From positions 64,001 through 128,000 of IMG/VR virus record IMGVR_UViG_3300007734_000760: 64,000 nt of DNA. One strand, 5' to 3'. The notes under the pieces were generated by a model that was not told where the DNA came from, made no database searches, and saw nothing but the letters and a program-made list of their open reading frames with translations. A program made the position numbers and the translations under genes. Positions 21,251 to 53,476 of the stretch are shown here, piece by piece (within the stretch, counting starts at the first letter, position 1; each line of letters begins with the position of its first letter). Source of the stretch: a virus.

Positions 21251-23692
21251 TTAGTAAGCCATATGTAATCCGTTAATTTCATCCCAAGCATCATTACTTA
21301 CTGCTATTATGTCTTTAGTTCCATCATCATATTCAACACTATATGATTTATCTCCATTTTGAATATATGTTTTAACAACTTTTCCGTTTATTTCAATGTA
21401 CTCAGATCCGCTAATATTGCTTCTTTTTAATTCTTCTTTAATAAGTTTAGCTATTACAGAGCGAAGTTTTGATTCTTTTAATAAATCATTACCTGTTCCA
21501 AAATCTGTAAAGTCAGTTTTGCGATAATCATAAGGTTCATAATCTTTTTCACCTACACTTTCTATTCCTGTAAGTGCACTTAATAAGTCATCACGATTTT
21601 CTAATCTACCTTCAGGATTTAATACAATTAATTCTTCCATTCCTTCATCTTTAGCCCACTGAATAAGTTCTAGATCTGAATGTTCATAGTCAATAAAATT
21701 ATTCATTTCTTCATTTAATGAATTTTCTTCTGTTTTATCATTAAAATACTTGTCAGCTTCTTCAAAATTATCAAATTCTTTATCTTTTTCTTTAGTTATA
21801 CCTTGACTATTATCTCTCACTTTATATATAGCTTTAAGTGGTATTGGTGTACCTGTTGGAGTTTCTCCTTTTTTTCCAATATATTCAATTGCTTTTTCTG
21901 GAGTTTTAAATTCAAAGTCTTGACCTGTTTTAAGATTTCTTACAATATAAATCATTGTGAACCTATTTTTTGCCATAGGTTCCCACGGACTTTGAAATAA
22001 CTGTGAACTTGTATCATCTCCTAATAAAGGAATAAGATATCCATCTTGAGTTTGTACTTCAGCCATTATTATACATCTAAAATTACCTGTACTTTTACTT
22101 TTTTGTTTTCTAGTGTCAAGTATTTTTATTTCACCACCTTTTGCTTTTTCAGTTAAATCAAGCATAGCTTTACTTTTAGCATTATCTATACTAATGTTAT
22201 CATTTCCTTCTCCAGAAATTTGCTTAGTTTTAGATTCAGTAGGAATTAATTTAGAATCAACATAATGCATTGGAGTTTCTTTTATTTTTGTTGGAGCAGT
22301 AGACACATTCTTTTTAATTAAACCTCTAACAAAAGAAGGAATAATTTCAGATATGTAACTTGTTAATTCTGTTTTTTTACGTTCTATGTCTTGTGAGTAT
22401 CTACCTCTAGTAATCCCAGCTAAAGCTATATAAAACATTTGAGATATAAACATTGCTAGATTATTATCTTTTGATATAATTTGTATACTACCAGGAAATC
22501 TATTGTTTATTTTAGTAATAACTTCTTTAGGTAAAAATGCATAAAATGGAATTTTACTTTTTTTATCTTGTTTTTTTGGATCAAAATCTCCTTTACTTAT
22601 TAAAGGAACTCCACCTTTTCCTGTTCTAACAACATCCGCTTCATCAAGTTCTTCAGCTAACATTAAATCATGTTCTAAGTCAGCTATTTGATCATAAACT
22701 GCTTCGTTTTCATTAAGTGATTCTGATTTGTATGGAGGAAGTTCTCTTTCAGTCCAACCTAAGTAACTACCAAATTCTAAAGCTTGTTCATAATATTCTT
22801 TTGCTTTCTCTAAATCACCTTCTTCAAATGCTTTTTTACCTTTATCGTAATAATTTTCAGCACCATATCTCATATTATTCTCCTCATCAGCATCACCATC
22901 TGAAGGATCAGTATCAAAATATGGATTTTCACCTGTTACTATTTCTTGTAATTTCATTGTCTTTTCAGCACCAGGCATGTCCATTTTCTTAACACCTTTA
23001 GAATTTTGAGGAGTTACAGACATTTCTTTTACTTTTTTAGGCATTGAAATTTTAGCTTCACTACTGCTTAAAGTATCTTTAACATTCTTTTTAATTAAAC
23101 CAATTAAACTATTTTTAACAACATCACTATCAGAATTTACTTCATCACGTCCGCCTAATATAGATGCGTTTTTAGATGTTGGTTGAGTATTTTTACCTAA
23201 ACCTGGCGCTTCATCAGTGTATCCTAAACCTTTAACTCCAAATTCACCATTTTTAGTATAGTACAAAGGATCTTTAGATAAGTTTTTTACTACTATCTTC
23301 TTTAATTCATCTCCCGTTTTATTTGCGTTTGCTGGGTCTTTCATCTCAGTATAGTATCCTTTCCAGATCTCGTTTCCATTAATGTTGTCTGCGTTTTTAA
23401 CGTCAGTAGCATCATATGCATCTTGCTTACCTTTAACTTCTTTAGATGTTTCTTTTTCTTCAGCTTTAGTTTCTTCAGCTAAAATATTTTTCCAATTCCA
23501 GATATCAAATCCTTTAGTGACAACGTTTGTTTGTTCACTAATAATTTGTTTTGTTTTTAATACATTAATTGATGTATTATAATCTAAATGTTTAGTTAAA
23601 TATTGAGGAAATAAATTTCTAGCATGTTTTAAAAATTGCTCTTTATTTCCTGTGCCTCGGTTTATGGCGTTAAATTGTTCTTGTAATGTCAT
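21251..23692 (-). CDS. Large modular putative internal-head (core) protein
   Basis: Head-module position; many (L/I)xE junctions; TPR-like helix pair; internal KLRSVIAKLIKEEL leader-type helix. Confidence 0.55.
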   Translation of the reverse strand: MTLQEQFNAINRGTGNKEQFLKHARNLFPQYLTKHLDYNTSINVLKTKQIISEQTNVVTKGFDIWNWKNILAEETKAEEKETSKEVKGKQDAYDATDVKNADNINGNEIWKGYYTEMKDPANANKTGDELKKIVVKNLSKDPLYYTKNGEFGVKGLGYTDEAPGLGKNTQPTSKNASILGGRDEVNSDSDVVKNSLIGLIKKNVKDTLSSSEAKISMPKKVKEMSVTPQNSKGVKKMDMPGAEKTMKLQEIVTGENPYFDTDPSDGDADEENNMRYGAENYYDKGKKAFEEGDLEKAKEYYEQALEFGSYLGWTERELPPYKSESLNENEAVYDQIADLEHDLMLAEELDEADVVRTGKGGVPLISKGDFDPKKQDKKSKIPFYAFLPKEVITKINNRFPGSIQIISKDNNLAMFISQMFYIALAGITRGRYSQDIERKKTELTSYISEIIPSFVRGLIKKNVSTAPTKIKETPMHYVDSKLIPTESKTKQISGEGNDNISIDNAKSKAMLDLTEKAKGGEIKILDTRKQKSKSTGNFRCIIMAEVQTQDGYLIPLLGDDTSSQLFQSPWEPMAKNRFTMIYIVRNLKTGQDFEFKTPEKAIEYIGKKGETPTGTPIPLKAIYKVRDNSQGITKEKDKEFDNFEEADKYFNDKTEENSLNEEMNNFIDYEHSDLELIQWAKDEGMEELIVLNPEGRLENRDDLLSALTGIESVGEKDYEPYDYRKTDFTDFGTGNDLLKESKLRSVIAKLIKEELKRSNISGSEYIEINGKVVKTYIQNGDKSYSVEYDDGTKDIIAVSNDAWDEINGLHMAY

Positions 23693-37962: not shown

Positions 37963-38233
37963 TTAATATTTAATTCCTAAAAACTTAGCTAGTTTATCAA
38001 ATTGATCATAATCCATCCAATCAACCCATAATACTATTTCTCCTTTTTTTATTCATTACAAAATTTTTAGGTGTAATAAAATCTTGTAATTCAGGGTTAT
38101 CTAATATAGCATCTTTAGTACTATTATTCATTATGATTTTATCTTCTTGATAATCAAATTCTTGATTTTCATTAATCAAACCCGCCAATTTCTGCATGCG
38201 TTTAAATTCTTCAGATAATAATTGTTTTTTCAT
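37963..38233 (-). pseudogene. MQKLAG-tagged small protein with apparent +1 frameshift at A7
   Basis: Removing one A at 38044-38050 extends the protein to NKKGEIVLWVDWMDYDQFDKLAKFLGIKY, ending at 37963 just before the terminator. Confidence 0.5.
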
Positions 38234-38846: not shown

Positions 38847-39341
38847 TTAAAATTGACCTCTATATTCTTCCATTTTTGTAATCCATGAACTATTAAACAT
38901 ATCACCATTATTGTATAAATAATTATAAAATTTAAAATCATCAGGATCATCATCAGGAAAAGGAAATTTTACTAATCCATTTTCTAATCCAAATTTAAGT
39001 AAAAAAGTATTTGCTACTCTATTGTAGTAATCATTAGTAGGCTCTTTATCTACTAAATCACCTAATTCTTCTGTATGGCCATCATATTCAGCTAAATCAA
39101 AAGCTAGATTATTTGTAAGATCACTATCTAGATTATTTAAAAATTTACTCTCAATAAATATATCGTTACTTAATCTATTTGTCTGATATCCATAAAAGGA
39201 CGATTTGTTTTTTTGAATTCCTATATCATAATCATTTACATAGTCAGCTATTATAGGCTTAACATCATTATACATGTTAGATAGTGATTTAAAAGGCTTA
39301 AACACCTTAATTTCTTTTAATATGTTGATTAGTTTAATCAT
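38847..39341 (-). CDS. Acidic putative internal-head cargo protein (IKVFK family)
   Basis: MIKLINILKE-IKVFKP; paralog of the next gene. Confidence 0.65.
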   Translation of the reverse strand: MIKLINILKEIKVFKPFKSLSNMYNDVKPIIADYVNDYDIGIQKNKSSFYGYQTNRLSNDIFIESKFLNNLDSDLTNNLAFDLAEYDGHTEELGDLVDKEPTNDYYNRVANTFLLKFGLENGLVKFPFPDDDPDDFKFYNYLYNNGDMFNSSWITKMEEYRGQF

Positions 39342-39343
39342 TT

Positions 39344-39811
39344 TTAAAATTGACCTCTATATTTTTCTAATTCTTTAAGATGTAGATTGTTAAGTATGTC
39401 ACCACCATTGTATGTACTACTTAATTCTTCTTCTTCAAATCCAGCATGAAATGGAAATTTTAATACTCCAATTTCTAATGCATATTTAAGTAAAAAAGCA
39501 TTTGCTAACACATTATAATAAATCATTACATTTTCATTATTAGTAAAATCAGTATAATCTCCGGTAAATCCATCGTACTCAGCTAAATCATAAGCTAAGT
39601 TATTGCTTAAGTCTCCATCTTCAAATTCACCTGTAAAATCATAATAATAAACCGGGTGATCACCATTATTATCTATCTCTATATTACCTACTACTTCACA
39701 TATATTCATATATACAGCCATTATAGGTTTTATATCTTCATACATGTTAGATATTGGTCTTAAATGTTTAAACACCTTAATTTCTTTTAATATGTTGATT
39801 AGTTTAATCAT
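39344..39811 (-). CDS. Acidic putative internal-head cargo protein (IKVFK family)
   Basis: MIKLINILKE-IKVFKH; shares NNLA.DLAEYDG and the YRGQF end with 38847-39341. Confidence 0.65.
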   Translation of the reverse strand: MIKLINILKEIKVFKHLRPISNMYEDIKPIMAVYMNICEVVGNIEIDNNGDHPVYYYDFTGEFEDGDLSNNLAYDLAEYDGFTGDYTDFTNNENVMIYYNVLANAFLLKYALEIGVLKFPFHAGFEEEELSSTYNGGDILNNLHLKELEKYRGQF

Positions 39812-39813
39812 AA

Positions 39814-40386
39814 TTAATTTTTTGTTGAATAATTAGTATTCCCACTAGCTTTATTTTTTAAAAACATTAATTGTCTGTCTGTAGCTGTATTTTTATTTTT
39901 TTCAATGTCAGCAATTACTTTTTTAGAATAATCATCATGTAAAAGCTGTTTATAATATTGAAGATTAATAATAGGTTTACGTTTTTCTTCTCCTAAAGTT
40001 TTTGACTCATAAGTTCCTGATGCTACCCGATATGGATTAGGAAATGTAAAATTATCATTTTTACTTAAATGACCTTTTAATGGAAAATATTTTTTACTAT
40101 TAATAGTAACTCCAGATCCTAAATTTATAGATTTTTTTATAGCTGACAAAATTGCTCTCGCCATATTTTCTTTTCCAGTTTCTATGTCTACAAACTCTTG
40201 TTTAAATTTAGAATTTGTTACATTCTTATTTAAATCATCAACAATAGAAGCTGGTAAGTATAGTACTACTGTGTCCTCTTTATTGGTTTTAATAGCTCCT
40301 TTAGCTTTAATAAAATCAAATTGTTTTGGAGTAAGTTGATAATCAGTAATTACTATTTCTTTTAGTAAATTGGTAAGTTTAATCAT
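39814..40386 (-). CDS. Putative internal-head cargo protein
   Basis: MIKLTNLLKE leader. Confidence 0.55.
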   Translation of the reverse strand: MIKLTNLLKEIVITDYQLTPKQFDFIKAKGAIKTNKEDTVVLYLPASIVDDLNKNVTNSKFKQEFVDIETGKENMARAILSAIKKSINLGSGVTINSKKYFPLKGHLSKNDNFTFPNPYRVASGTYESKTLGEEKRKPIINLQYYKQLLHDDYSKKVIADIEKNKNTATDRQLMFLKNKASGNTNYSTKN

Positions 40387-40389
40387 TAC

Positions 40390-41406
40390 TTAAAAATCAA
40401 AAGTTTTAGTTTTATGTTTTCTAATTAATGCATCTAAAGAAGTTATCATTTCTGCTTTTGAAGCTTCATTGTTAGTAATTTCTTCTATATATGTTAATAA
40501 AGCATCAAATAATTTTACTAATTCAGGCACAGTGTCTATATTTTTTATATTTGATGCTTTAGTTTTAATCATAGCCATTATTGCATCTACATTTAAATCT
40601 TTTTCAGAAACAGTTACACCTCCTACAGTTGAAGAATTAGACTTTTTTGGAGTAGGATTTTGTGTAGCTTCATTGTACTGCTCTTCAGTAATAATACCAG
40701 CTAATTTTTGCATATGAAGTACTTCATATATATTCATATCTTCTTCCATATGACTTCTAGGTCCATATCCACCTGCTGGGTCTGTATTGTCTGGTCCAAA
40801 ATCAAATTCTGCTTTTTTATCTTCTTCATCTTCATACTTTAATTTTGAGGGTAAATTTTGAGCAAAGTCACTAAATGTTTTTCCGTATTTAGTTAAAAAT
40901 CTATCTGATGTTATCTTATATAATTTATTATCAGCATTAGAGTCCTTTAAATCTTCATCATTATATCCTAAATCTTCCATAACTTCATCTTCAATTTCTC
41001 TCCAAGCATCATTTACATCTTCTTGATCAATAAAATAGGTTTTACCAATTGGGCTATTTTCATTTAATGATGTTTCATCAATAATTTCTTCTTTTTCAGT
41101 ATCTTTTACTTTTTCACTTTTACCATCTTTTGATTTAAGTTTTTCTAATTGTTTTTGATATTTAGTTAAACTTTTTTTCAATACTTTAATTTCAGAAGCA
41201 AGTTCTTTCATTTTACTTTTATCAATCATGTCATGATATGCTTCATCGATACCTTCCATATTCATTTTTCTCTCACGTGTGGTAATAGCATCACCTATCG
41301 CGTTAATTTTAGCTTCACAAGCTGCATTTTCACCAGCGTGATCAATTTCACTAATATAGTTTTGGATTGATTCTCTGATTAATTGTATTAAGTTTTGATT
41401 GTTCAT
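40390..41406 (-). CDS. Modular putative internal-head protein
   Basis: LIQLIRESI leader; SLNE junction; internal HMQKLAGIITE tag. Confidence 0.55.
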   Translation of the reverse strand: MNNQNLIQLIRESIQNYISEIDHAGENAACEAKINAIGDAITTRERKMNMEGIDEAYHDMIDKSKMKELASEIKVLKKSLTKYQKQLEKLKSKDGKSEKVKDTEKEEIIDETSLNENSPIGKTYFIDQEDVNDAWREIEDEVMEDLGYNDEDLKDSNADNKLYKITSDRFLTKYGKTFSDFAQNLPSKLKYEDEEDKKAEFDFGPDNTDPAGGYGPRSHMEEDMNIYEVLHMQKLAGIITEEQYNEATQNPTPKKSNSSTVGGVTVSEKDLNVDAIMAMIKTKASNIKNIDTVPELVKLFDALLTYIEEITNNEASKAEMITSLDALIRKHKTKTFDF

Positions 41407-41419
41407 GATTTTGATTTAT

Positions 41420-41427
41420 TATAAATA
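41420..41427 (-). promoter_or_regulatory. Putative late promoter TATTTATA
   Basis: Upstream of cargo genes 41406-38847. Confidence 0.6.
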
Positions 41428-41438
41428 TGTGATTTTTA

Positions 41439-42776
41439 TTATTTCTTATATATTTTTAATTTTAATGTACCTGTACCTTTAATAACACGATGCCATTTAT
41501 GTTTAGGTATTGATATTTGTTCATTTAATGATTTAGGCAATTGATTATCTAATTGTATTTTCCAATCTGTTTTATCTACAGCTTCAATAATGCGTTTTTC
41601 ATTATCACGATGCCACATTAATTCAATTGGATCTATATTTTTATTAAATTCACGAATAATATATTTATCTGTTACTTTAATATCTTTATATGGTTTTTTA
41701 TTTTCTTCTAAACCTAAATCAGATAAACTTATATCTTCATCATCTTCTTTATCAGGTGTTGGTTCCATATAGTTTAAAACCCAACTTTTTTGTGATGATG
41801 TTAATTTATTATTTATTAAGTCTTCAATAAATTCAATAAATTCCCTAGCATTACTTTCTCTATATAAATTAGCTAAAAATAACTCAAATGCTACTTTATT
41901 ACGAATATTTGCATCATTATACAGTTTTAATAATACTTCTTGAATATGAGTACCAAAACCAAAATCTTCAGGTTCATGTTCTAATTTATCAGCAGTATTA
42001 GCTATTGCTTGATTAATTTTTTTACTTTTAGTAAATCCTTGTAATGATGTAATTTCATATAAACCTTTAATAATTTCATGAATTAAAAATGGAAATATTA
42101 TACCTGTTGCTCTAATCTTTAATTTACCTTCTTCTTCATCAAATTTAGCTTCTGACTCTCCACCTTTGCTTTCTCCCCCACCAGCATTACCACCTGCTAG
42201 CATAGCTAAAAACATAGCTAATGCTTCTTCATCATAAAATATACCAAATACTTTTTTTAAAGTTTCACCATATTTGTCTACACTATTTTCAATTCCACCT
42301 AATGTTTCACTATAACTATCTAATAAATTTTCAGGAACTTCATCTAAAAAATCCATAAATGGTTTATCTAAAGCACCACGAATTGAAGCGCCTTGAGTAA
42401 TAGCATTTATAAGTCTTCTTTTAGCTACATCATCATTCATTATATCTATAGGTTCTTCTTCTTCTTCTTCAGATTCTTCAGGTTCTTCAGGTTCAGAAGA
42501 TAACTGGTCTTCTCCTAATGTAGCTTCTATTTCAATATCAAATTCATCAATAACAGGATACATTCTTTTAACCATATCTACAGCTAATTTTTCTAATTCA
42601 GCTTTATATGGTGCTTCATCTTTAGCTAACTGCTTAACTAACACAGCAGAACGTTGAAGGATTTGTGTTAAACGTTCATTACCAAGCATACGTTCTCTTG
42701 ATGAAACGTTTTTACCTTTTAAATTTTGAATAGTTTCAGGATTTTTAAATATATCCTTATATTGTATTTCGTTCAT
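41439..42776 (-). CDS. Acidic helical protein fused to a C-terminal cupin-like domain
   Basis: KRRLINAITQG and FP.LIHEIIKG.YE motifs; after LGLEE a WHRD....IPKH.WHRVIKG cupin-type domain. Confidence 0.6.
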   Translation of the reverse strand: MNEIQYKDIFKNPETIQNLKGKNVSSRERMLGNERLTQILQRSAVLVKQLAKDEAPYKAELEKLAVDMVKRMYPVIDEFDIEIEATLGEDQLSSEPEEPEESEEEEEEPIDIMNDDVAKRRLINAITQGASIRGALDKPFMDFLDEVPENLLDSYSETLGGIENSVDKYGETLKKVFGIFYDEEALAMFLAMLAGGNAGGGESKGGESEAKFDEEEGKLKIRATGIIFPFLIHEIIKGLYEITSLQGFTKSKKINQAIANTADKLEHEPEDFGFGTHIQEVLLKLYNDANIRNKVAFELFLANLYRESNAREFIEFIEDLINNKLTSSQKSWVLNYMEPTPDKEDDEDISLSDLGLEENKKPYKDIKVTDKYIIREFNKNIDPIELMWHRDNEKRIIEAVDKTDWKIQLDNQLPKSLNEQISIPKHKWHRVIKGTGTLKLKIYKK

Positions 42777-43135
42777 TATTTCTTTTTTAATAATTTATAT
42801 CTTTTTACAATGTCTGCTATTCCTTTAGATACAGCTTCATTTGCTTTTGCTTTGGGTCTTGTTTTTGGGTTAGTATTTGGATTAGGATGAAGAGGATTTT
42901 TTTTCTTTTCTTCTTCTTTTGTTTTAGGTTTAGTAGGAGCTGGTGCTACTTCAGTAGATTTTGCCTTAGGTCTTGTGTTTGGATTAGTGTTTGGGTTAGG
43001 GTGAAGAGGATTTTTTTTCTTTTCTTCTTCTTTTGTTTTAGGCTTAGTAGGAGCTGGAGCTACTTCAGGAGACTTTTCAGCTAATATAGCGCGTAACTCT
43101 TCTTTAATAATCTGTTTTAATTTGTTAATTTTCAT
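42776..43135 (-). CDS. Basic Pro/Lys-rich putative internal-head protein with 38 aa tandem duplication
   Basis: Start revised to MKINKLKQIIKEELRAILAE; EVAPAPTKPKTKEEEKKKNPLHPNPNTNP.TRPKA x2. Confidence 0.65.
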   Translation of the reverse strand: MKINKLKQIIKEELRAILAEKSPEVAPAPTKPKTKEEEKKKNPLHPNPNTNPNTRPKAKSTEVAPAPTKPKTKEEEKKKNPLHPNPNTNPKTRPKAKANEAVSKGIADIVKRYKLLKKK

Positions 43136-43184
43136 AATTTGCTGTTTTATTTTTATTTTAGTATGTTTATTATTTAATTGGTCC

Positions 43185-43271
43185 TCACTTACGATCGGCA
43201 ATTCGTTTACAGCGATCTGCTTTTTTCTTTTCTTCAAGAAGAATTTGTTTAAATATATAAGCAAGATTCAT
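43185..43271 (-). CDS. 28 aa micro-ORF or gene remnant (MNLAYIFKQILLEEKKKADRCKRIADRK)
   Basis: ATG overlaps the upstream stop (TAATG); LLEE junction. Confidence 0.4.
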   Translation of the reverse strand: MNLAYIFKQILLEEKKKADRCKRIADRK

Positions 43272-43639
43272 TATATTCCTATGTTATTTAATGTAGGTTC
43301 AGCTTTAAATGTAACTACTCCTTTAATACGATTAATATTATCAATGATCATTTTAATAGTTTCAATAGTAAAATGACCATTTTTTAAATATGGATATGGA
43401 TCTACTTTAATAGTAACTCTATTATAACTATATCCTTGTTTAGGTAAATTAGGAATATATTCTTCTGTGTCCATAGTTGTAACACCAGTTATTGAACGAA
43501 TATCAGAAAACACTTGTGTTTGTGTTTTTTTAGCAAAGTCAGTAACTAATAAGCCTTCTATTTTATAAAGTTTTTCAGCTGAGTCTTCACGCAGTATTTT
43601 ACGTAATTCTTCTCTAATTATTTTTTTTAATTTTTCCAT
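43271..43639 (-). CDS. Putative internal-head protein
   Basis: MEKLKKIIREELRKILRE leader; DIRSITGVT ferredoxin-like alpha/beta pattern. Confidence 0.55.
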   Translation of the reverse strand: MEKLKKIIREELRKILREDSAEKLYKIEGLLVTDFAKKTQTQVFSDIRSITGVTTMDTEEYIPNLPKQGYSYNRVTIKVDPYPYLKNGHFTIETIKMIIDNINRIKGVVTFKAEPTLNNIGI

Positions 43640-46302
43640 TATTTTTTTAATTTAAACCATTCTTTTAATGATTCTTTAACAAATTCTGAAAGTGTATCAT
43701 TTGGTTTATTTGATGATTGTATATCTTTAATATCATATACTCTATTATACTTATCTCCACTATTAGCAAAATCAATTGAAGCAAGCTTATTGTCTTTTTT
43801 TAATTGGGGTAAATTATATTTATCTTTTATAACTTTACCTTGTTCATCCATTAACACCCAAACATCATAGTTGTCATTTGATTGAGGTAAAAATACATAT
43901 TTTTGACTTCCATCTTTAATAACAAAAGGTAAAGCATATAATAAATTTTCATATTTTAAATTTTGATTATATCTTTCAACTAATTCAATAATTGAACGTC
44001 TTTCTAATGTTGATAAATCGCTCCAATATTTTTGATCTATAGCTCTAGGATAAACACCTTGTGTTGGCATAATAGATTTTAATTCTAATTCTTCATCACT
44101 CATATTAGTTGATGAAGTAAGCTGCCATGGACCATATAATTTTGAATATATATCAAATAATTGTTTTAATTTAGGATTATCAATGTATTTTTCAGGTCCT
44201 TTTTCTGGCAAATAGTCTAAATTTTGTATTTGATCATTTACATACTTTTTAGTTGTTTCTTTTCCAAAATATTTTTCAATGTATTCAAAGGTTAAAAACT
44301 CTTGATATTTTGATAAAATTATTTGTTTTGCGTTTTCATCTAAATATTTAATATAAGGTAAAGGAAGTAATTTATCAGTATTATTCTCAGCATTATTTTC
44401 AGCATTACCACCCTGTCTAAAATTAACTATAGCATATCGTTTTGCTAAAGATTCATATTGTTTTAAAATAAAGTAAGGAAAAGTTTGACCATTATTTATA
44501 GCTTCATTAGCTAAAGTTGTTGGTTTACCATATTCATCTACTGTTTTATATTTAGGTAAAATTTCTAATATATCATTAGTTAAACCTTGTTTTTGAGATT
44601 TACCTTTAACATAATCTACTTTTTCATCATTAGTTAATTCTTTAAATTCAGTTAAACTTAAATTTTTACCTGATGCTAATTTTCTAAGGCGTTCAGATTT
44701 TGATAATTCTATTGGTTTAAAATAATCTTTTAAATTTTTAATTTTTCCCCATATATCTGCTGGTATTTTATTAGATATGTCTTCCCAACTTTTAGCTGTA
44801 ACATCTGAAGGGTTATCAGCATTGGTTATTTGATATGTTTTACCATCTGATTCTATTCTTATTACAAAAGCATGCCATACATCTTTAAAGGGTTTATGGT
44901 CTGGGGTAGAGGGTCTATTTCTATCAAATATAAAATAAAATGTAGGCGCAACTTCTCTAAATCTATAACTATCATACATGTTACCTCCTCCAGCTTGAGT
45001 TACACACCATGCATATTTTTGCCGACTAGTAGAAGCTACTTTAGGATTATATGAAATACATTTATGCATATCATCTCCTTTATATATTTCTATTCCGTCT
45101 TTATCATATATTTTATCAGCATCTGTAGACACATTATTTATCTCTCCAGAAATTTCTTTTTTAGAAGGAAATAAAGCGTCTAACATTTGTTCTAAAGGAT
45201 GAAATTCCCAATTGCGTGGATCTAAATATAAATTATTTCTTAATAAATTTTTAGGAATAAGTTTTTCTACATCTTCTTTAGTATATAATTCATCATCAGT
45301 ACCATCTATAAGAGCACCTTTTAAATTATTTCTATTAGATATAAAACGAGCAACATATGATTGAGCTAGATCTTTACCTATTTGTTCTTTTTCAACAAAT
45401 TTTTTAACTGCTTCTTTTTTTATGTTTTCTGTATTTTCAGGTAATGATTTAATTAACTTAATCATATCATCAAATGAGTATTTATATATATTAAGATAAT
45501 TTTGTCCTTGTCTTAAAGTATCAGATAAAACTACTATGTTTAATTTTTGAGTTAATGAAGCTTTAGCTTTTTCAAAATCAGCAATTTGTTTTTTAAGATA
45601 TTCATCATGTTTTTTCTGAGTTGCCTCTGTTGGAAATTCTGTTGCCCATTCTGGATGTTCATTTTTCCAACGTGTTATAGTATCATTAATTACTTTTTCA
45701 GCGTATTCTTTAATTAATATTTTAGATTCATCGATATCTTCATCATCGTTATCTTCATCATCGTTAATATTTTCAGATTTTTTAACTGCTTCAATAGCAT
45801 ACTTAACACAATAATTAATTATTTGATCAAATTTTACACTCTTATCTCCCCAATATAAAGGCATTGGAATTCTTTTATAGTGTGCTACCGCTGCCCAAAA
45901 TGCTTGTTTAGCAGCATTACCTGCCGCCGCCTCAGCAGATGAAAAGCCCCATCCTAGATGATCAGGATCATAATCATCATCATCATAATCACTACGTCCA
46001 TAATCTTTATATCTTAAAAGATTAGTGATAGTGGCAGAATCTGTTGGATTAGCTAAATATGCTTTAGCAGTTTCTATTGCGTTATGAGGAGTTTCACTAT
46101 GTGTTCCTGGGTGGTATTTTTCAAAAATATGTAAAACCCTCTCAGCGCATTGAATTGCTAAAGACAGTTTTTCTTTATCATCTTTAGATGCTTCTATTCT
46201 AGATTTAAGAGATTGAAGTATAGGAAGTTGTGAAGGTTTAAATACTTTAATTTCATTAAGTATCTCTTTTTTAATTATATTTATTAATTCTGATTTTTTC
46301 AT
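43639..46302 (-). CDS. Large putative internal-head polyprotein with N-terminal IKVFKP/Imm5-like cassette
   Basis: MKKSELINIIKKEILNE-IKVFKP; AIQCAERVLHIFE; later WCVT......YDSYR....TFYFI.D segment. Confidence 0.6.
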   Translation of the reverse strand: MKKSELINIIKKEILNEIKVFKPSQLPILQSLKSRIEASKDDKEKLSLAIQCAERVLHIFEKYHPGTHSETPHNAIETAKAYLANPTDSATITNLLRYKDYGRSDYDDDDYDPDHLGWGFSSAEAAAGNAAKQAFWAAVAHYKRIPMPLYWGDKSVKFDQIINYCVKYAIEAVKKSENINDDEDNDDEDIDESKILIKEYAEKVINDTITRWKNEHPEWATEFPTEATQKKHDEYLKKQIADFEKAKASLTQKLNIVVLSDTLRQGQNYLNIYKYSFDDMIKLIKSLPENTENIKKEAVKKFVEKEQIGKDLAQSYVARFISNRNNLKGALIDGTDDELYTKEDVEKLIPKNLLRNNLYLDPRNWEFHPLEQMLDALFPSKKEISGEINNVSTDADKIYDKDGIEIYKGDDMHKCISYNPKVASTSRQKYAWCVTQAGGGNMYDSYRFREVAPTFYFIFDRNRPSTPDHKPFKDVWHAFVIRIESDGKTYQITNADNPSDVTAKSWEDISNKIPADIWGKIKNLKDYFKPIELSKSERLRKLASGKNLSLTEFKELTNDEKVDYVKGKSQKQGLTNDILEILPKYKTVDEYGKPTTLANEAINNGQTFPYFILKQYESLAKRYAIVNFRQGGNAENNAENNTDKLLPLPYIKYLDENAKQIILSKYQEFLTFEYIEKYFGKETTKKYVNDQIQNLDYLPEKGPEKYIDNPKLKQLFDIYSKLYGPWQLTSSTNMSDEELELKSIMPTQGVYPRAIDQKYWSDLSTLERRSIIELVERYNQNLKYENLLYALPFVIKDGSQKYVFLPQSNDNYDVWVLMDEQGKVIKDKYNLPQLKKDNKLASIDFANSGDKYNRVYDIKDIQSSNKPNDTLSEFVKESLKEWFKLKK
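46195..46255. repeat. 61 bp exact repeat (second copy at 47506-47566; diverged copy near 53342-53401)
   Basis: tattctagatttaagagattgaagtataggaagttgtgaaggtttaaatactttaatttca occurs twice. Confidence 0.9.
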
Positions 46303-46305
46303 GTT

Positions 46306-48222
46306 TTACCAATATCCACTAAAATTTGATTTAATACCTAACAATTTAGCATATCTTGGTAAATTACAACTCCAATATGATGCTTTTGTTCTGTCTTTTT
46401 TATTTTTACAATCATGGCGGGATGCAAATGCTTTACGAGCTTTTGGATTGTTTAATTTAGCATGTAAACCGCCTCCAGCCATACCAAAACTAACTTTTTT
46501 AATTTTTTTAGTTTTAGGATTACGTACATATACATAAAATTTCTTAGATCCGCCACGTTTAGGTTTATTTAAAGGTGGAGCTTTTTTATCTTTAGATTCA
46601 TTAAGATTGTAAAATTCTTGAAAATAATTACTAAACATGTCATACACCAGTTCTTTAATACTAGTATCAGCACTTACTTCTATGTAATCATATATATCTA
46701 TGTCACGACCATCTTTTTTAAAGTCACAATCATCTACATATGTCCATCCATTTTGTTTTAAATGAGTAGCTATAAATGGAAGAATAAATCTATATATTAT
46801 AATATAACAACTATCTTCTACTCCTCCAGTTTGTATGTCAAATAATTCTTCTTTAGAATTAGGATAAGCGTGGTATAAGTAGTCAGGATAATCTTGATTA
46901 TTTTCTATGTCTAGTTCCATATATACATCAGTATACCGCTCCCATATATTATTTATAATTTCTGAAGTGTGATTTTGTATCATCATGGGTATATCAGAAT
47001 CTTTAAATATATCTTTATCATTTTTAAAAATATCATAAATTTCTTTAGCAAAAGGTAAAGTTAAAAAAGATTTAAAAGATGTAGATGAGTTAGGTTTGAA
47101 TACTTTAATTTCTTTAAGATTTTTGAATTTTTCAATTGCTTTAATAGCATAATCAACTGCCAAATCATAAGAGTTATATTCATTTGAATATAGCTCCAAG
47201 GAGCTAATAGATACTTCAATAGCTTTAAGAGCTAAAAAAGCCGCTTCATATCTTTCAAAATCTTCATCAAAACCTTCTGGGTCCATGTCATATTCAAGAG
47301 ACTGAACTATAGTTTCAATATCAAAACTAGCATGGTCTGCTGTTTGTTTCTTTTCTTCTGTTGGATTTGCTAGATATGTTTTAGTAGCCTCTATTGCTTT
47401 ACGAGGACTTTTATTATCAGGATATTTTTCTTCCCAAATATATAAAACCCTCTCAGCGCATTGGATAGCTAGAGATTGTTTTTCTTTAGCATCTTTAGTT
47501 GCTTTTATTCTAGATTTAAGAGATTGAAGTATAGGAAGTTGTGAAGGTTTAAATACTTTAATTTCACTAAGTCCTGCTTTTGCAGCGGTTAATAATATAT
47601 TAACTTCTTGATTTGTTAAGTATTTTTTTAATACTATTAATACTTCATAATAGTTTACTTTATTTTTTGGATCTTGTGTAAACAGTTCTTGTAGTTCATT
47701 ATATAAATTAAGATAAGTTTTATTCTCATTAGTATCAAAATATTTATTCATTACTATCCCAAGTAAATTACTTAATGGTTGAAATCTAATATCTTTAGCA
47801 TACTCTACATCGTCTTTAGTACCTCTTTCATCTGTTATTTCTTCATCTTTTTCTTCCATTATCATATCTAATGGCACTTTTTTACCATCATACATTCCAT
47901 ATTCACCTAAATTTGTTTCTAAAATAATATGTTTATCATCATTATTTACATGAATAGCATTACGAGAATATAAATAACGTGCTTCAGCCCATAAATCTAA
48001 AAACGATTCTGAACCATAACGAAATGTATTTTCTGTAATTGATAACTTATTTTTAACATGATGCTGCATGTTTTCAGTCATAGTTATTTTAGCTCTTAGA
48101 CTTTCATTTAATACTGGACCTTTGTTACCTACATTTTCACATGAATGACAACCACAATTACATGATTCTTTTTTAGGTGGGGTAGAGAGTAATTCTCTTA
48201 TAAGTTTATTAATGCGCTCCAT
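46306..48222 (-). CDS. Putative internal-head polyprotein with two tandem IKVFKP cassettes and a basic C-terminal domain
   Basis: LSE-IKVFKP (Imm5-like), LKE-IKVFKP (acidic), then LNE followed by KKVSFG...RKAFASRH.C...YWSC. Confidence 0.65.
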   Translation of the reverse strand: MERINKLIRELLSTPPKKESCNCGCHSCENVGNKGPVLNESLRAKITMTENMQHHVKNKLSITENTFRYGSESFLDLWAEARYLYSRNAIHVNNDDKHIILETNLGEYGMYDGKKVPLDMIMEEKDEEITDERGTKDDVEYAKDIRFQPLSNLLGIVMNKYFDTNENKTYLNLYNELQELFTQDPKNKVNYYEVLIVLKKYLTNQEVNILLTAAKAGLSEIKVFKPSQLPILQSLKSRIKATKDAKEKQSLAIQCAERVLYIWEEKYPDNKSPRKAIEATKTYLANPTEEKKQTADHASFDIETIVQSLEYDMDPEGFDEDFERYEAAFLALKAIEVSISSLELYSNEYNSYDLAVDYAIKAIEKFKNLKEIKVFKPNSSTSFKSFLTLPFAKEIYDIFKNDKDIFKDSDIPMMIQNHTSEIINNIWERYTDVYMELDIENNQDYPDYLYHAYPNSKEELFDIQTGGVEDSCYIIIYRFILPFIATHLKQNGWTYVDDCDFKKDGRDIDIYDYIEVSADTSIKELVYDMFSNYFQEFYNLNESKDKKAPPLNKPKRGGSKKFYVYVRNPKTKKIKKVSFGMAGGGLHAKLNNPKARKAFASRHDCKNKKDRTKASYWSCNLPRYAKLLGIKSNFSGYW

Positions 48223-48240
48223 AATAATAAATATTATTAA

Positions 48241-49083
48241 TTATAGTTTAAGTTGAGGATATGAACTAGAAGGCGTAATAGCTGTAAAATTTATGTTGCC
48301 TTTTATTGCTTTTGCTTTTAATTCATCTCCATTATATATGTTATAGTTATTAGTATTTGAAGATATTAATAAGTAATAATCGCTTTGTTTTATATTAATG
48401 TAACTTGACACATATTTTAATATTAATATGTTTTTAAGATTATTTAGATTGTCAGGTGTAACATTTATGTTTGAATTAGGATATATGTTATTTAGTTTAA
48501 AATTTATATCTTTTAAAAATAATTCTTTGTCTAGTGTTGAGTTATATATTTTTTTAATATATTCTGGCAGATGTGATACACGAGGTACTTCATATGTTTT
48601 ATCTAAATAAGAAAATAGTTTTTGAATATTGCCTCCTCGACCTATACCCTTACCTGGAAATCTAGCATATGATCCTTTAATTTCTATAATATTTCCATTA
48701 ATGTTTATATCACCTTTATATTTTTTTGACTTTGCAGCATTTTTAAAGAATAATATTAATGCCATTTCAGATTTACCAATACCGTTGCCGCTTTCACTAG
48801 GCACTATACCTATTATATTATTAATAAATTCTTCATCAAATCCAGTTTGTTTAATAAGTTCTACTAAATTAGTATTAACTTTTAAATCATCAAGTGTTAA
48901 CTTAGGATCATCTAAATATTTAGATAATTTAACATCTTGATCAGAATGCATAGCTATAATTACTATTAATTTACTTAAACTTTCACTTAAGTTTTTTAGT
49001 TTAAGTTTTTCTTTTAATTCTAAATTTAAAGATTTTTTTTCTTTTTTAGAAAATGTTTTTAAAAACCTATTTATTATGTCCAT
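48241..49083 (-). CDS. Restriction-endonuclease-like (PD-(D/E)XK) protein
   Basis: GIGKSE.AL and GDI.I.G..IEIKG catalytic-like pattern. Confidence 0.5.
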   Translation of the reverse strand: MDIINRFLKTFSKKEKKSLNLELKEKLKLKNLSESLSKLIVIIAMHSDQDVKLSKYLDDPKLTLDDLKVNTNLVELIKQTGFDEEFINNIIGIVPSESGNGIGKSEMALILFFKNAAKSKKYKGDININGNIIEIKGSYARFPGKGIGRGGNIQKLFSYLDKTYEVPRVSHLPEYIKKIYNSTLDKELFLKDINFKLNNIYPNSNINVTPDNLNNLKNILILKYVSSYINIKQSDYYLLISSNTNNYNIYNGDELKAKAIKGNINFTAITPSSSYPQLKL

Positions 49084-49607
49084 TAAGCTGGTGTTTCTTT
49101 AGTTGGAGGTGTTTCTGGAGCGGATGATTCAGGTGCTGGTGCTTCTGCTTCAGGTGCAGGCGCAACTTCTGAAGTAGAATCTGTTGGTACTTCTTCTTTA
49201 ACTACTTCTTTAGCACCATAAGATAAAATTCTAGCTATAGCTTCAATACAGTTTTGTTCTTCACTTAAATTTAATAAATAATATCTTTTACCTTCTACTT
49301 TACTAATCCATGTTCTATCAGTATAAATTAAGTAAAATACTTGATCATTACCTAATATAATACGAAATGTTGTAGGACGTGGTGCTACCCACTCAATATC
49401 TTTTAAAAATAAATCAAATTGGGTTGTTAGTAATTTAACTAAAGCATCATATAATGTAGGGAATTTATTTAACACTGGGAATCGAGTATTGTCTAAAGAT
49501 ACAGCAGATGGATTATCTAAATCTATTTCATCTGATTTAGTATTAATTTTAGAATATACTTGTTTAACTAGTGTTTTAATTCTATTTTTAAATTCACTTT
49601 TAGTCAT
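49083..49607 (-). CDS. Putative internal-head protein
   Basis: MTKSEFKNRIKTLVK leader; WVAPRPTTFRI and EGKRYYLL; Pro/Glu-rich tail. Confidence 0.55.
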   Translation of the reverse strand: MTKSEFKNRIKTLVKQVYSKINTKSDEIDLDNPSAVSLDNTRFPVLNKFPTLYDALVKLLTTQFDLFLKDIEWVAPRPTTFRIILGNDQVFYLIYTDRTWISKVEGKRYYLLNLSEEQNCIEAIARILSYGAKEVVKEEVPTDSTSEVAPAPEAEAPAPESSAPETPPTKETPA

Positions 49608-50113
49608 TATGATTTTAATTTATTTATTACTTTTTTAACTAATTCATTAATTTGATTTTCACTTTCTGGAGGTATTATAGAATTATAATCTGTCATATCT
49701 AATGTTTTACCGTTTTGAGCTAATTTAATCATATTTTCAGTAGCTGAGTGTAAATCCATATCTGTTTTAGCATCTTCTCTTGCAAACTCCATAACACGAA
49801 TTAGTAATGGAATATCCATTGTAACAATATCTATAGGATTTTCTCCTACTGTTTTACGAGTTTTAACATAATTAGCTGAATCTATTTTAGGAGCAAATAA
49901 TGTTTTTTTAATTACTTCTTTGATTCGCTGTTGTTCATTTTTCATAGATTTACTTTTAGCTAATTTAATTGCTCTACCCCAAGCTACTTTTTCAGCATCG
50001 GGACCGTATTTATCTACAAAATCATCAACTTTTTGAAGATATCCACCAAAAATATCTTTAGCTATTGCTAATTCTCTAGTGGATAAGTCTTCAAAAAGGA
50101 TTGATTTTTTCAT
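49607..50113 (-). CDS. Hypothetical modular protein
   Basis: F.DKYG.DA..VA.G.A and D.VTMDIPLLIR.MEFARED segments. Confidence 0.55.
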   Translation of the reverse strand: MKKSILFEDLSTRELAIAKDIFGGYLQKVDDFVDKYGPDAEKVAWGRAIKLAKSKSMKNEQQRIKEVIKKTLFAPKIDSANYVKTRKTVGENPIDIVTMDIPLLIRVMEFAREDAKTDMDLHSATENMIKLAQNGKTLDMTDYNSIIPPESENQINELVKKVINKLKS

Positions 50114-50114
50114 A

Positions 50115-50288
50115 TTACTTTACTTTCGCTTCAGCTACTGAGGCTTTGTTGTAAGCAGCGATTATTTTTTTCATTTCGCTTAATGCTTTACGAGCTCTAC
50201 CTTTAGCAGCTTTAGGTGTGTCTTCATGATTTACTTTAGCAGTTTCAAATAACTCACTAATTTTTGTAAATAGTTCTTGTGTGTTCAT
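50115..50288 (-). CDS. Histone H1-like Hc1-family small DNA-binding protein (absent from the ORF track)
   Basis: 57 aa MNTQELFTKISELFETAKVNHEDTPKAAKGRARKALSEMKKIIAAYNKASVAEAKVK; KAA..RARKA..E..K......KAS pattern. Confidence 0.65.
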   Translation of the reverse strand: MNTQELFTKISELFETAKVNHEDTPKAAKGRARKALSEMKKIIAAYNKASVAEAKVK

Positions 50289-50319
50289 AGATTTGATTTA
50301 TTTATTGGTTTATATTGTT

Positions 50320-50799
50320 TTAAACATTAGATTGTTGTCCACCACCTAACATAATTTTATTTAAAAATTGAATCGTGTTACGAATTTGAGTTATTAATTT
50401 TTCATCATTAGATTTTAATGCTGAGTCATATGCTGACATTAAGTGACTATGAATATCTTTTTGTTCTGGGGTAATACTTTGGGGTGAAGCCATTGTGTCA
50501 CTTGTAGTAGGATTTTGAGGTATATCTAATGATGTATCTGCTGGTGGAGAAGTTTCGTCTGGTTTAGTTGGTACTTCAGGTATTTCCGCTTCTGGATCTT
50601 GAGGCATCACGTCTTTAGCTTTTTTCTTTTTAGCTTCATCTAAATCAAGTTCATCGATTTGAGGTGAATTATATTCATTTAAAATTATTTCTCTAATTTT
50701 TTCTTTCATTTGAGATTTAGTCATTTTATCTCCTATTGACTCTTTGATAAGTACTTTACCAAACGCCAACTTTTGCATATTTTCAAATTGATTATTCAT
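50320..50799 (-). CDS. Putative internal-head protein
   Basis: FENMQKLAFG tag followed by MTKSQMKEKIREIILNE leader. Confidence 0.55.
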   Translation of the reverse strand: MNNQFENMQKLAFGKVLIKESIGDKMTKSQMKEKIREIILNEYNSPQIDELDLDEAKKKKAKDVMPQDPEAEIPEVPTKPDETSPPADTSLDIPQNPTTSDTMASPQSITPEQKDIHSHLMSAYDSALKSNDEKLITQIRNTIQFLNKIMLGGGQQSNV

Positions 50800-50810
50800 T
50801 GTAGTTTTAT

Positions 50811-50818
50811 TATAAATA
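50811..50818 (-). promoter_or_regulatory. Putative late promoter TATTTATA
   Basis: Upstream of 50799. Confidence 0.6.
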
Positions 50819-50826
50819 TTGTGTTT

Positions 50827-51465
50827 TTATTTTCTATCATGTAAATAATCAGTTAATATTGTACCTATCGCGCCAGTTTTTTGTCTTAATAAAATCCATT
50901 CATCTAATGATAATATATGTTCCTTTTTATAATAAGACAAGGTTAAAGATGCAATAAAGTCATTATTTAAATCTTGTATAGATAACATATAAAAAGATTT
51001 AGTTTTATATTCTTTATTATGAACAGGAAATAATCCACAATCTACAGTATTATTTTTACAATTAGATATAGCAATTTCACCAGTATTATATAATGTTGAA
51101 AATACTTTAGGAAATAATGATACAGGAATATTTTGAAACATATCTTTTACTGATGGAGCATCACTTGTTGTTTGTTCATAAAATATACTAAACTTTTTAA
51201 TAGATTTACCTGTTGGATAAAAATTACCACCATTATGAAATTGAGAAATACATATTCTATCACATTCTAATTCTTTCATAAGTAATTCAAGTTGCATATC
51301 TACTTTTTCATCAATTTTAATTGATTCTCCTAACGCACAGGTATGTTTTTTATTTATAACTTTAACTTTAATAAATTCTACTATTATAGGAGATATTAAA
51401 GCTGTTATTAAAGCTGTCACTACAGTTATTAATGAAGCATTTATTGAAATTATAGAGTAAATCAT
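50827..51465 (-). CDS. Holin-like protein (single TM + GAF-like domain, T4 gpT type)
   Basis: N-terminal TM helix; DRI.I.QFHNGG GAF-like pattern. Confidence 0.5.
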   Translation of the reverse strand: MIYSIISINASLITVVTALITALISPIIVEFIKVKVINKKHTCALGESIKIDEKVDMQLELLMKELECDRICISQFHNGGNFYPTGKSIKKFSIFYEQTTSDAPSVKDMFQNIPVSLFPKVFSTLYNTGEIAISNCKNNTVDCGLFPVHNKEYKTKSFYMLSIQDLNNDFIASLTLSYYKKEHILSLDEWILLRQKTGAIGTILTDYLHDRK

Positions 51466-52031
51466 TTTTTTAAATTTTGTAAGTATTTGATTGTTTCTTC
51501 TTTATTTTCTAATAACTTATTTTTAGTTAAACCAACCCAACGTTCTATATCACCAGCTTCAGTAATAAATGAATCATTAGAACTATTTATAACTTCATCC
51601 ATCCATATACTATAGTCTTTAATAGTATTATCTATATCTGAATTTATAATATTTTTTTCATATTCTTCCCACAACCCCAGTTTACGTAAATCTGTTTCAA
51701 AATCAATTTGACAATTAAAACATCTATTATATTGAATGTAAAATTGCTTGTCAAATTTATTTTTCATTAAATTAGAACAACAAGGACAAAATAATGGTAA
51801 TACTATTGAACGTTTTGCTTTATCTAATTTAGTTAAATTTTGTTTAATACCATTTTTAATAGTCCATGTACGATCATCTTCTTCCCATACATCTCCTTCT
51901 TCATGAAATTGTTTTTGTTTATCATAACCTATACTAGTGATAGTTTTATCACCATGTTTACCTTGAACTAAATTGCGAAGGCGTTGTATATCGTGTTGTT
52001 TAAAATCTTTTTTTAAAACTGATTCTTTCAT
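51462..52031 (-). CDS. Hypothetical Zn-binding protein
   Basis: CPCC ... CFNC. Confidence 0.55.
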   Translation of the reverse strand: MKESVLKKDFKQHDIQRLRNLVQGKHGDKTITSIGYDKQKQFHEEGDVWEEDDRTWTIKNGIKQNLTKLDKAKRSIVLPLFCPCCSNLMKNKFDKQFYIQYNRCFNCQIDFETDLRKLGLWEEYEKNIINSDIDNTIKDYSIWMDEVINSSNDSFITEAGDIERWVGLTKNKLLENKEETIKYLQNLKK

Positions 52032-53476
52032 TATAACTTAGGTTGTTTTTTTAATGTATAATCTTCATTAGTTAAAATTTCTTCTTTTTTAAGATTACTT
52101 AATATTTTATTTAAATTAGCGGTATCAGATAATGGAAATCTAATTGTAGTAGAATTAATTATATCTGGATGTAGTTCTGGTCTTGATCCAGTTTCTTTAT
52201 TTTGAGTAGCATAAAAATCTTTTACTAAATTATAATTTTTAGTAGTCTTTTTTAAAAATATAAATATTATTTTATTTTTATCATCACGTGTTTCATCAAA
52301 ATCAAGTGGACTAAGAGTTACTCCTTTTTCTCTTCCAAAACTAGCTAACTTTTTATATAGTTCACGACCATTTTCTTGATATGTTTTAATATTAGTAGCG
52401 TTTGAAACTGTAGGTTCGCCAAATATTGTTTTTTCAAAGTTTTTATAATTTTCACTTTTATTAGTAAACGCACCAACAAAATATTTTGGATCCATTAATT
52501 TACTTTTTAACTCTTCAGCGTTAATATTATCAGTTAAAATTTCAAGTTCCCACTCGTTTTCTGTACTAGTATTACTAAATGTAGGTTCTTCATTTTCATT
52601 TATATTATTTTTAATTTTATCTTCCCAATTTCTAAGACATATATTACCTTTTAAATATGCTTCTTTTTCTAGTTCTTCTAATTCATCTCCTTCATTAGTA
52701 TTAGTAGTATGAATATTTTGTAATCTACCTTCATTATCTTGTATACGATGAATCATTTCATGAGCATATGAGCGTAATATATCTTTTGGGAGACGATTCA
52801 TTGTATATAATGTAATTGAACAATCATTTGGATCATAATGTGCTGTTTTACCTAAAATATTAGATGCGTTTTTAGAATCGTTGTTTATTAATTTTAATTT
52901 AGGTAAAGGTTTAATGTCCATACCTTTATTAATCATATACTTAGTTAATGATTTTATTGCTTCTTTTAAATTAATAGGAATATTTGATTTCATTTCATTA
53001 ATTGGTTCATTAATGTTGTAGTATAGTTTAACTGCTTTAATAGCATATTCAGCAGCATAAGCACCAGCAGCAGCAGCATAAGCAGCATCAGCAGCAGCAT
53101 AAGCAGCATCAGCAGCATAACCATAAGCAATATTGCCAGCGGCATTTATAATAAACGTTTTAGCGGCATAAAAAGCGGCATTTATATTTTCTTTTGTTAG
53201 GTCAGCTAAACACGCTTTAGCAGCCTCTATTGCTTTACGAGGACGATTATCGTTTGGATATTTTTCTTCAAAAATATGTAAAACTATTTCAGCACATTGA
53301 ATTGCTAAAGATAGTTTTTCTTTAGCATCTCGAGATGCTAATATTCTAGATTGAAGAGATAAGAGTTGAGGAAGTGGTGAAGGTTTAAATACTTTGATTT
53401 CGTTAATATATTTTAATGAAGATATCATTTTATCTTTAAGTAATTCTTCTGTTAAGATATTTATTAAATTTTTCAT
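52031..53476 (-). CDS. Putative internal-head polyprotein: Imm5-like cassette + HEXXH zincin domain + third module
   Basis: INE-IKVFKP; CAE.VL.IFE...PNDNRPRKAIEAA; AAYAAADAAY repeats; AHEMIH...EKEAY. Confidence 0.65.
   Translation of the reverse strand: MKNLINILTEELLKDKMISSLKYINEIKVFKPSPLPQLLSLQSRILASRDAKEKLSLAIQCAEIVLHIFEEKYPNDNRPRKAIEAAKACLADLTKENINAAFYAAKTFIINAAGNIAYGYAADAAYAAADAAYAAAAGAYAAEYAIKAVKLYYNINEPINEMKSNIPINLKEAIKSLTKYMINKGMDIKPLPKLKLINNDSKNASNILGKTAHYDPNDCSITLYTMNRLPKDILRSYAHEMIHRIQDNEGRLQNIHTTNTNEGDELEELEKEAYLKGNICLRNWEDKIKNNINENEEPTFSNTSTENEWELEILTDNINAEELKSKLMDPKYFVGAFTNKSENYKNFEKTIFGEPTVSNATNIKTYQENGRELYKKLASFGREKGVTLSPLDFDETRDDKNKIIFIFLKKTTKNYNLVKDFYATQNKETGSRPELHPDIINSTTIRFPLSDTANLNKILSNLKKEEILTNEDYTLKKQPKL

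Follow-up and report, generated by a model that had tools for sequence, protein, structure and literature searches.

The IKVFK joint and the genes that carry it

We examined a stretch of 64,000 nucleotides (the window; positions 64,001 to 128,000 of IMG/VR virus record IMGVR_UViG_3300007734_000760) in which the peptide IKVFK recurs in five genes, each time directly after a glutamate in the context (L/I)-x-E. The source genome, that of a T4-like marine phage, is a single record of 159,934 bp with 27.6% G+C, and the genes of the region all lie on the (-) strand. The head genes of this phage follow a T4-like order consisting of terminase, portal, three unassigned open reading frames (ORFs), a Peptidase_S77 (S77) protease, an acidic ORF at the scaffold position and the major capsid protein. 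An original prediction, made from the sequence of the window, proposed that the IKVFK junctions bound cargo cassettes that are released by a protease similar to T4 gp21 and shuffled among carrier proteins. The gp21-like protease gene that it named is borne out by a match to the Peptidase_S77 family (Table 1), and the nearest cultured relatives of this protease are those of Flavobacterium phage immuto and Microcystis phage Mel-JY01 (45–46% identity).

A six-frame scan together with an ORF scan of the whole genome identified IKVFK exactly six times, recovering every junction that had been predicted, each after (L/I)-x-E. By our estimate, a proteome of 50,000 residues with this composition would contain one given pentamer by chance about 0.01 times. 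A genome-wide count against shuffled proteins, as suggested with the prediction but made here with a relaxed joint pattern, also lies above the shuffled level, with nine occurrences (the six canonical joints included) compared with 2.5 in shuffles. The copies differ from one another at silent sites (AAA/AAG, GTA/GTG, ATT/ATC, TTT/TTC), so that they are not simply one recent DNA duplicate and the peptide is maintained at the protein level. Outside the window, a 150-aa ORF on the (-) strand (G000:C1:140239-140691) has a leader of the 20-residue type described below and a variant joint, L-D-E then I-H-I-L-C-P, which is possibly the seventh joint of the genome.

Table 1. Joints, cassette-bearing genes and head genes of the window; coordinates are window positions
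Feature	Position	Strand	Remarks
Ile codon starts of the six IKVFK copies	39311, 39781, 46251, 47562, 47109, 53398	(-)	preceded respectively by LKE, LKE, LNE, LSE, LKE, INE
164-aa gene	38847-39341	(-)	leader MIKLINILKE, joint E10-I11 at 39311, cargo module
155-aa tandem paralogue (P0010)	39344-39811	(-)	same leader; joint at 39781 reads IKVFKH
190-aa gene	39814-40386	(-)	same 10-residue leader type; no IKVFK after L-K-E site
887-aa ORF, leader	46252-46302	(-)	17 residues, ends L-N-E
887-aa ORF, Imm5-like cassette	45706-46251	(-)	residues 18-199, IKVFKP to L-I-K-E; Pfam Imm5 20.7 bits, below cut-off 25
887-aa ORF, core acting as carrier	43639-45705	(-)	about 670 residues; the 120 listed homologues are 534-1528 aa
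638-aa carrier	46306-48222	(-)	leader (48193-48222), N-domain, segment X, two cassettes, C-domain
638-aa carrier, segment X	47563-47841	(-)	ends L-S-E
638-aa carrier, Imm5-like cassette	47110-47562	(-)	ends L-K-E; Pfam Imm5 32.5 bits, cut-off 25
638-aa carrier, cassette Z	46597-47109	(-)	ends L-N-E
638-aa carrier, C-domain	46306-46596	(-)	basic, phrog_7595 type
481-aa ORF, leader	53399-53476	(-)	26 residues, ends I-N-E; same leader in P0016
481-aa ORF, Imm5-like cassette	53006-53398	(-)	residues 27-157, ends Y-Y-N-I-N-E; Pfam Imm5_like 36.2 bits, cut-off 25
481-aa ORF, body with HExxH motif	52031-53005	(-)	
Prohead protease, T4 gp21 type	20636-21238	(-)	Peptidase_S77 PF03420, Pfam E 1e-27; PHROG 207 E 6e-57
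Scaffold-position ORF, acidic, 460 aa	19108-20490	(-)	between protease and capsid genes; C-terminal peptide reused elsewhere as N-terminal leader
Major capsid protein	17408-19066	(-)	PHROG 138 E 7e-69; L-L-E then N at residue 50

The cassette ends first proposed at 45706, 47110, 46597 and 53006 all agree with homologues. E199-Y200 of the 887-aa ORF (45706) coincides with the leader/core boundary in about 100 homologues, E371 (47110) and E542 (46597) of the 638-aa ORF bound the Imm5-like cassette and cassette Z, and E157 of the 481-aa ORF (53006) is where stand-alone Imm5 modules end. The 190-aa gene has the leader without IKVFK, and the leader and the downstream motif are therefore separable. 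No related loci for the 164-aa family were found in viral or metagenome contigs.

Two of the three Imm5-like cassettes match the bacterial families Imm5 and Imm5_like (PF14423, PF21805) above the Pfam cut-off, and the copy in the 887-aa ORF aligns with the other two despite its lower score. The phage copies differ from the bacterial proteins in having a leader and joint in place of the bacterial N-terminal segment. For these cassettes only the name of the family suggests an immunity function. Most ORFs between 38 and 54 kb were scanned against Pfam and PHROG, with no dedicated toxin search run, and no toxin family was identified to accompany them. Modules other than the Imm5-like domain match no family.

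A general joint and the exchange of cassettes

The first 185 residues of the 887-aa ORF were compared by phmmer with 1.84 billion representatives, giving 42 matches. These relatives carry a more general joint of nine residues, [L/I/V]-x-E followed by I-K-[V/I]-x-x-P, and many of the long ones repeat the pattern, up to 17 times in one 1795-aa protein. There are 92 joints in the 42 relatives compared with 0.6 in shuffles, mostly spaced by about 100 residues (range 60–180, with one exception of 734). The Glu, Ile and Pro of the joint were fixed by the search pattern. However, the residue two before the Glu (P3), which the pattern did not impose, is L, I or V in 87 of the 92 joints; the intervening residue (P2) is variable and polar, and K occupies the second downstream position in 73/92. 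The upstream half is also standardised, often reading Y-N-L-x-E.

Variants of the joint are specific to lineages: this phage has F-K, and other lineages have N-K, N-Q, L-S or, at the second downstream position, a Glu. A scan of IMG/VR with back-translated E-IKVFKP gave 41 matches, all in unrelated families or out of frame and approximately the number expected by chance, and the exact IKVFK string is thus specific to its lineage. The conservation originally noticed downstream of the glutamate is real, but the functional motif is the broader I-K-(V/I)-x-x-P, of which IKVFK is only the form found in this lineage. A polyprotein with 14 joints had no match among cultured phages by tblastn, and literature searches returned no published description of such polyproteins.

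The joint is independent of the fold that follows it. Cutting the joint-bearing proteins at their joints yielded 138 modules, which fall into 36 clusters unrelated by BLAST: 41 modules are Imm5-like, 34 belong to a family of about 100 residues that often has P-x-x-F-R-F-E after the joint, 14 belong to the 164-aa family, and the rest form about 30 small clusters. The joint is missing from Imm5-like proteins of bacterial type, although these align with the phage cassettes. We modelled residues 190-400 of the 638-aa ORF with AlphaFold from a 25-row alignment, at a predicted local distance difference test (pLDDT) score of 80.6. The helical Imm5-like domain lies largely above pLDDT 90 and both joints are coil below 50, with the confidence minimum at the joint Glu and the residues directly after it. 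A Foldseek comparison of this model with the PDB gave generic helical bundles only, and a single-sequence run of the whole 638-aa ORF (pLDDT 37) was too poor to be used. The objection, raised alongside the prediction, that IKVFK might be the first strand of one shared fold is ruled out by the roughly 30 unrelated module types and by the coil at the joint in the model.

An exposed, fold-independent motif with strong downstream conservation could instead serve for docking, as a short peptide in which a beta-strand precedes Pro. It would bind one shared partner (the scaffold core, the portal or a host protein, for instance), its repetition would add avidity, and cleavage would be unnecessary. The lineage-specific variants (F-K here, N-Q and L-S elsewhere) would fit co-evolution with one such partner. 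However, we have no candidate for the partner, the upstream L/I/V-x-E is conserved equally to the downstream half, and single-module genes already have separate leaders. We consider docking of this kind improbable.

Comparison of homologues shows cassettes gained, lost and swapped exactly at the joints, in agreement with the proposal of plug-in units bounded at (L/I)-x-E in otherwise unrelated carriers. The 638-aa carrier type has constant N- and C-domains and, among phages, zero, one or three inserted segments. In immuto the carrier (185 aa) has between its domains an acidic linker only, with two (L/I)-x-E sites, and in the joint-rich genome G001 (300 aa) it has one segment. Carrier P0020 (494 aa) contains the G001-type segment, another module and then an Imm5-like cassette, and the carriers of this phage (638 aa) and P0029 (625 aa) contain the G001-type segment, an Imm5-like cassette and then cassette Z. 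The last cassette, whichever it is, ends Y-N-L-N-E and is followed by an identical S-K-D-K stretch. Elsewhere cassette Z is a single gene that stops four residues before the L-N-E position, and Imm5 modules also occur as single genes that stop at the Y-Y-N position; these genes start with a leader and joint and end 0–4 residues before the Glu.

The 670-residue core of the 887-aa ORF is 45–55% identical across more than 100 metagenomic homologues and, judged from this conservation, is among the most conserved uncharacterised proteins of the phage group. It received no assignment from Pfam, a PDB sequence search or the Atlas. Among the 120 homologues listed of 175 matches in all, core-only forms begin with a leader of 10–13 residues ending (L/I)-x-E, and longer homologues carry N- or C-terminal extensions with 1–7 joints. 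At the leader/core boundary P3 is L or I in 83/83 distinct sequences and P2 is variable; the Glu at P1 was required by the pattern, and the sequences missed by the pattern that we checked by eye also have Glu.

The last 85 residues of a 445-aa ORF (41439-42776, (-) strand) correspond to a stand-alone 85-aa gene in immuto (46% identity); this ORF has no IKVFK joint and, by its alignment, is another case of fusion or splitting. A small leader-bearing ORF (42776-43264, (-) strand) contains, twice in tandem, a segment of about 40 residues that is rich in proline and lysine.

The joint is also constrained at the level of codons. At the third downstream codon the final base is A in 24 of 26 G001 joints (p 4e-8 versus codon context), as it is in 46 of the 55 joints found in 28 further loci (p 1e-7), and the first Ile of the joint avoids ATA in G001. 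The DNA consensus, GAA ATY AAA RTA, is found in G001 (L045-L051) and in L052-L080, and is weak at 39311, 46251, 47109, 47562 and 53398. From the codon bias, a word of about 12 bases may act at the DNA or RNA level, perhaps by providing homology for recombination. Taken further, the joint might be an uncleaved flexible linker that serves mainly as a DNA-level word for in-frame shuffling of modules, with the proteins acting intact like the polyvalent proteins discussed below. The presence of a single variant at all six joints of this genome, the nucleotide-level constraint indicated by the bias toward A and the avoidance of ATA, and the exchange of cassettes exactly at the joints are consistent with such a linker. 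However, the conserved core is only about 12 bases long, and flanking codons vary within one protein. An uncleaved linker also leaves unexplained the pattern of L/I/V at P3, variable P2 and Glu at P1, as well as the nearly invariant leaders of single-module genes and the scaffold-peptide leaders described in the next section. We therefore regard it as rather unlikely, and a DNA-level function is compatible with proteolytic processing as a second role of the joint.

Leaders, the head protease and predicted processing

The published cleavage rule of gp21 is L/I-X-E (PMC9026906). In its sequence the upstream half of the joint, with L, I or V at P3, a variable P2 and Glu at P1, corresponds to this rule. 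The S77 protease is encoded in 9/9 large records, namely this genome, G001 and all seven related records that are at least 49% complete, and is absent from two smaller related fragments. Inside the modules (L/I)-x-E is depleted (167 observed versus 198 expected, ratio 0.84), whereas in other proteins of the two genomes it is enriched (1074 versus 855, ratio 1.26); (L/I)-x-D is not depleted in modules. These frequencies are a weaker, independent hint of processing by the protease. The L-L-E site at residue 50 of the capsid protein lies, by its putative register with T4 gp23, at the position of the maturation cut.

Three classes of leader were identified. The first is 10 residues long; its positions 4 and 7 are hydrophobic, position 8 is L and position 10 is E. 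Across homologues P0001-P0013 there is almost no variation in the first 15 residues, whereas the remainder is 45–60% identical. The capsid targeting sequence of T4 is also 10 residues long, with positions 4 and 7 acting in targeting and positions 8 and 10 directing processing (PMC8442874; PMC9026906), and the class 1 leader has, as far as its sequence can tell, the same length and layout. The second class is amphipathic and about 20 residues long; five proteins of this genome have (L/I)-x-E at its positions 12 and 20, and a sixth has it at positions 10 and 18, which are equivalent. Within the head module, an 813-aa ORF (21251-23692, (-) strand) whose sole family match is a weak, sub-threshold TPR has near its C-terminus an internal stretch that resembles the 20-residue leader and contains two (L/I)-x-E sites.

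The third class is the peptide F-x-R-M-Q-K-L-A-G-(I/L) with x-E next. In eight genomes, namely seven related records and, in a diverged form, this phage, the scaffold-position ORF has this peptide as its C-terminus, and in two related records it also heads small ORFs in the head module between the protease and scaffold genes. Binding of the scaffold C-terminus to the shell is established for other phages; by analogy, the scaffold-type peptide may bind the shell in this phage group as well. A scaffold-type R-M-Q-K-L-A-G-I peptide occurs in accessory proteins at 38021-38233, 40390-41406 and 50320-50799 (all on the (-) strand), with (L/I)-x-E next each time. It lies near the N-terminus and in one case internally, and is also present in L081-L087 and in G001.

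From the joint, its independence of fold, the exchange of cassettes at joints, the leaders, the mimicry of the scaffold peptide and the co-occurrence with an S77 protease, all of which are observed here, we infer with a probability of roughly 60% that these genes encode capsid-packaged cargo cassettes processed by the head protease, in an expanded and modular form of T4's internal-protein system. The precursor would be brought into the assembling prohead by a short N-terminal leader of one of the three classes, and the S77 protease would then cut after the Glu of every [L/I/V]-x-E joint, removing the leader and separating the cassettes. The freed modules, mostly of about 80–140 residues and most commonly the Imm5-like, immunity-type helical domain, would remain inside the head and pass with the DNA into the cell, where they may have an anti-defence role. 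The downstream I-K-V/I-x-x-P would be a flexible, fold-independent linker that most likely makes each joint an equally good exposed substrate. Since the joint is standard, in-frame recombination could move any cassette into any carrier. The original prediction had further proposed that the shared new N-terminus is a signal in itself. Tentatively, the joint may have a dual purpose. As a protease site it would leave a uniform N-terminus that gives the freed cargo a further signal, whether for retention, for ordered ejection or for binding of a common partner. As a word of about 12 bases it would also be the in-frame recombination point at which T4-like marine phages exchange injected effectors among genes and genomes.

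Several points weigh against packaging and processing by the head protease. A downstream requirement is unreported for known gp21-type and phiKZ-type proteases (PMC9026906), and the protease rule therefore does not explain the conservation of I-K-V/I-x-x-P. Sites that lack the downstream motif occur in the capsid protein, in the scaffold-position ORF and in many leader proteins of this phage, so that the protease does not generally require this motif. Imm5 modules show no depletion of internal sites, and the contrast with (L/I)-x-D derives partly from a family-specific L-x-D motif. The joint-bearing genes adjoin primase and exonuclease genes and lie outside the head module, some polyproteins are leaderless and start M-N-E followed by the motif, and no cultured phage in the phage collection searched carries the polyproteins. 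The T4 late-promoter word TATAAATA is not enriched upstream of either the cassette genes or the structural genes and is uninformative on timing.

The joints could also be cut in the cytoplasm by another protease, for which a host enzyme and the HExxH domain in the 481-aa ORF are candidates; the polyproteins would then be of the usual viral kind and have no connection with the capsid. The HExxH motif lies in a joint-bearing protein, and polyvalent proteins often have a processing metallopeptidase (PMC5512222). However, the HExxH body matches no peptidase or other family and has no homologue in G001, with its 26–28 joints, or in the other fetched loci, which makes it unlikely to be the processing enzyme; a dedicated HExxH processing protease was rejected for its absence from these loci. 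In immuto, the body belongs to a joint-free protein of 907 aa, residues 578-724 of which match residues 174-313 of the 481-aa ORF. The site pattern is moreover of the S77 type, an S77 protease is present in every large record, and the scaffold-peptide leaders point to the capsid. Cytoplasmic cutting consequently seems very doubtful.

Relation to known systems

The closest known system is that of T4's internal proteins with their capsid targeting sequence, followed by the processed ejection proteins of phiKZ-like phages. In T4 IPI, IPII, IPIII and Alt, as in the genes described here, an N-terminal leader of about 10–20 residues ending (L/I)-x-E is common to otherwise unrelated small proteins, an S77 protease lies in a T4-type head gene order, and the leader is conserved where the cargo has diverged. 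However, one reading frame here links many cassettes (as many as 17 in relatives), conservation of the joint extends to either side of the predicted cut, there are three leader classes of which one copies the scaffold C-terminus, and the cargo includes Imm5-like domains. Pfam and PHROG scans of the carriers identified none of the internal-protein families (T4 IPI, IPII, IPIII, Alt). In phiKZ, 201phi2-1 and SPN3US cleavage of many head proteins takes place after the Glu of a three-residue motif, the propeptides of phiKZ-like phages contain several redundant sites, and diverged paralogues retain identical N-termini (PMC5694885; PMC9026906). These phages differ in their S80-type proteases, S/A-x-E sites and long propeptides, and neither a two-sided joint nor cassette shuffling has been described for them.

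Polyvalent proteins are multi-domain, conflict-type proteins that are thought to be delivered with the DNA and are possibly processed (Iyer et al. 2017, PMC5512222), and delivery and processing of multi-domain proteins are also proposed here. However, Imm5 does not figure in the description of polyvalent proteins, and no linker or joint motif is mentioned there (PMC5512222). In the present proteins only the Imm5-like domain is recognisable, and the predicted processing enzyme is the head protease and not a peptidase within the chain. Exchange points for modules in T4-type genomes are marked by short conserved DNA motifs, the PeSLs (PMC2839356, PMC4122927). PeSLs are promoter/terminator elements that lie between genes and move them whole, whereas the joint is coding, in frame and moves protein domains.

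Injected internal proteins are the first counter-defence of a phage, and detailed knowledge of them is limited to a few model phages. If our interpretation is correct, a large group of uncultured marine T4-like phages would have a standardised plug-in format from which cargo repertoires could be read in the sequence, and in-frame cassette exchange at a fixed joint would provide a concrete rule for the diversification of cargo. It would also predict two new capsid-targeting peptides, one of them borrowed from the scaffold C-terminus and a potential packaging tag, and would nominate Imm5-like immunity domains as injected anti-toxin or anti-defence factors.

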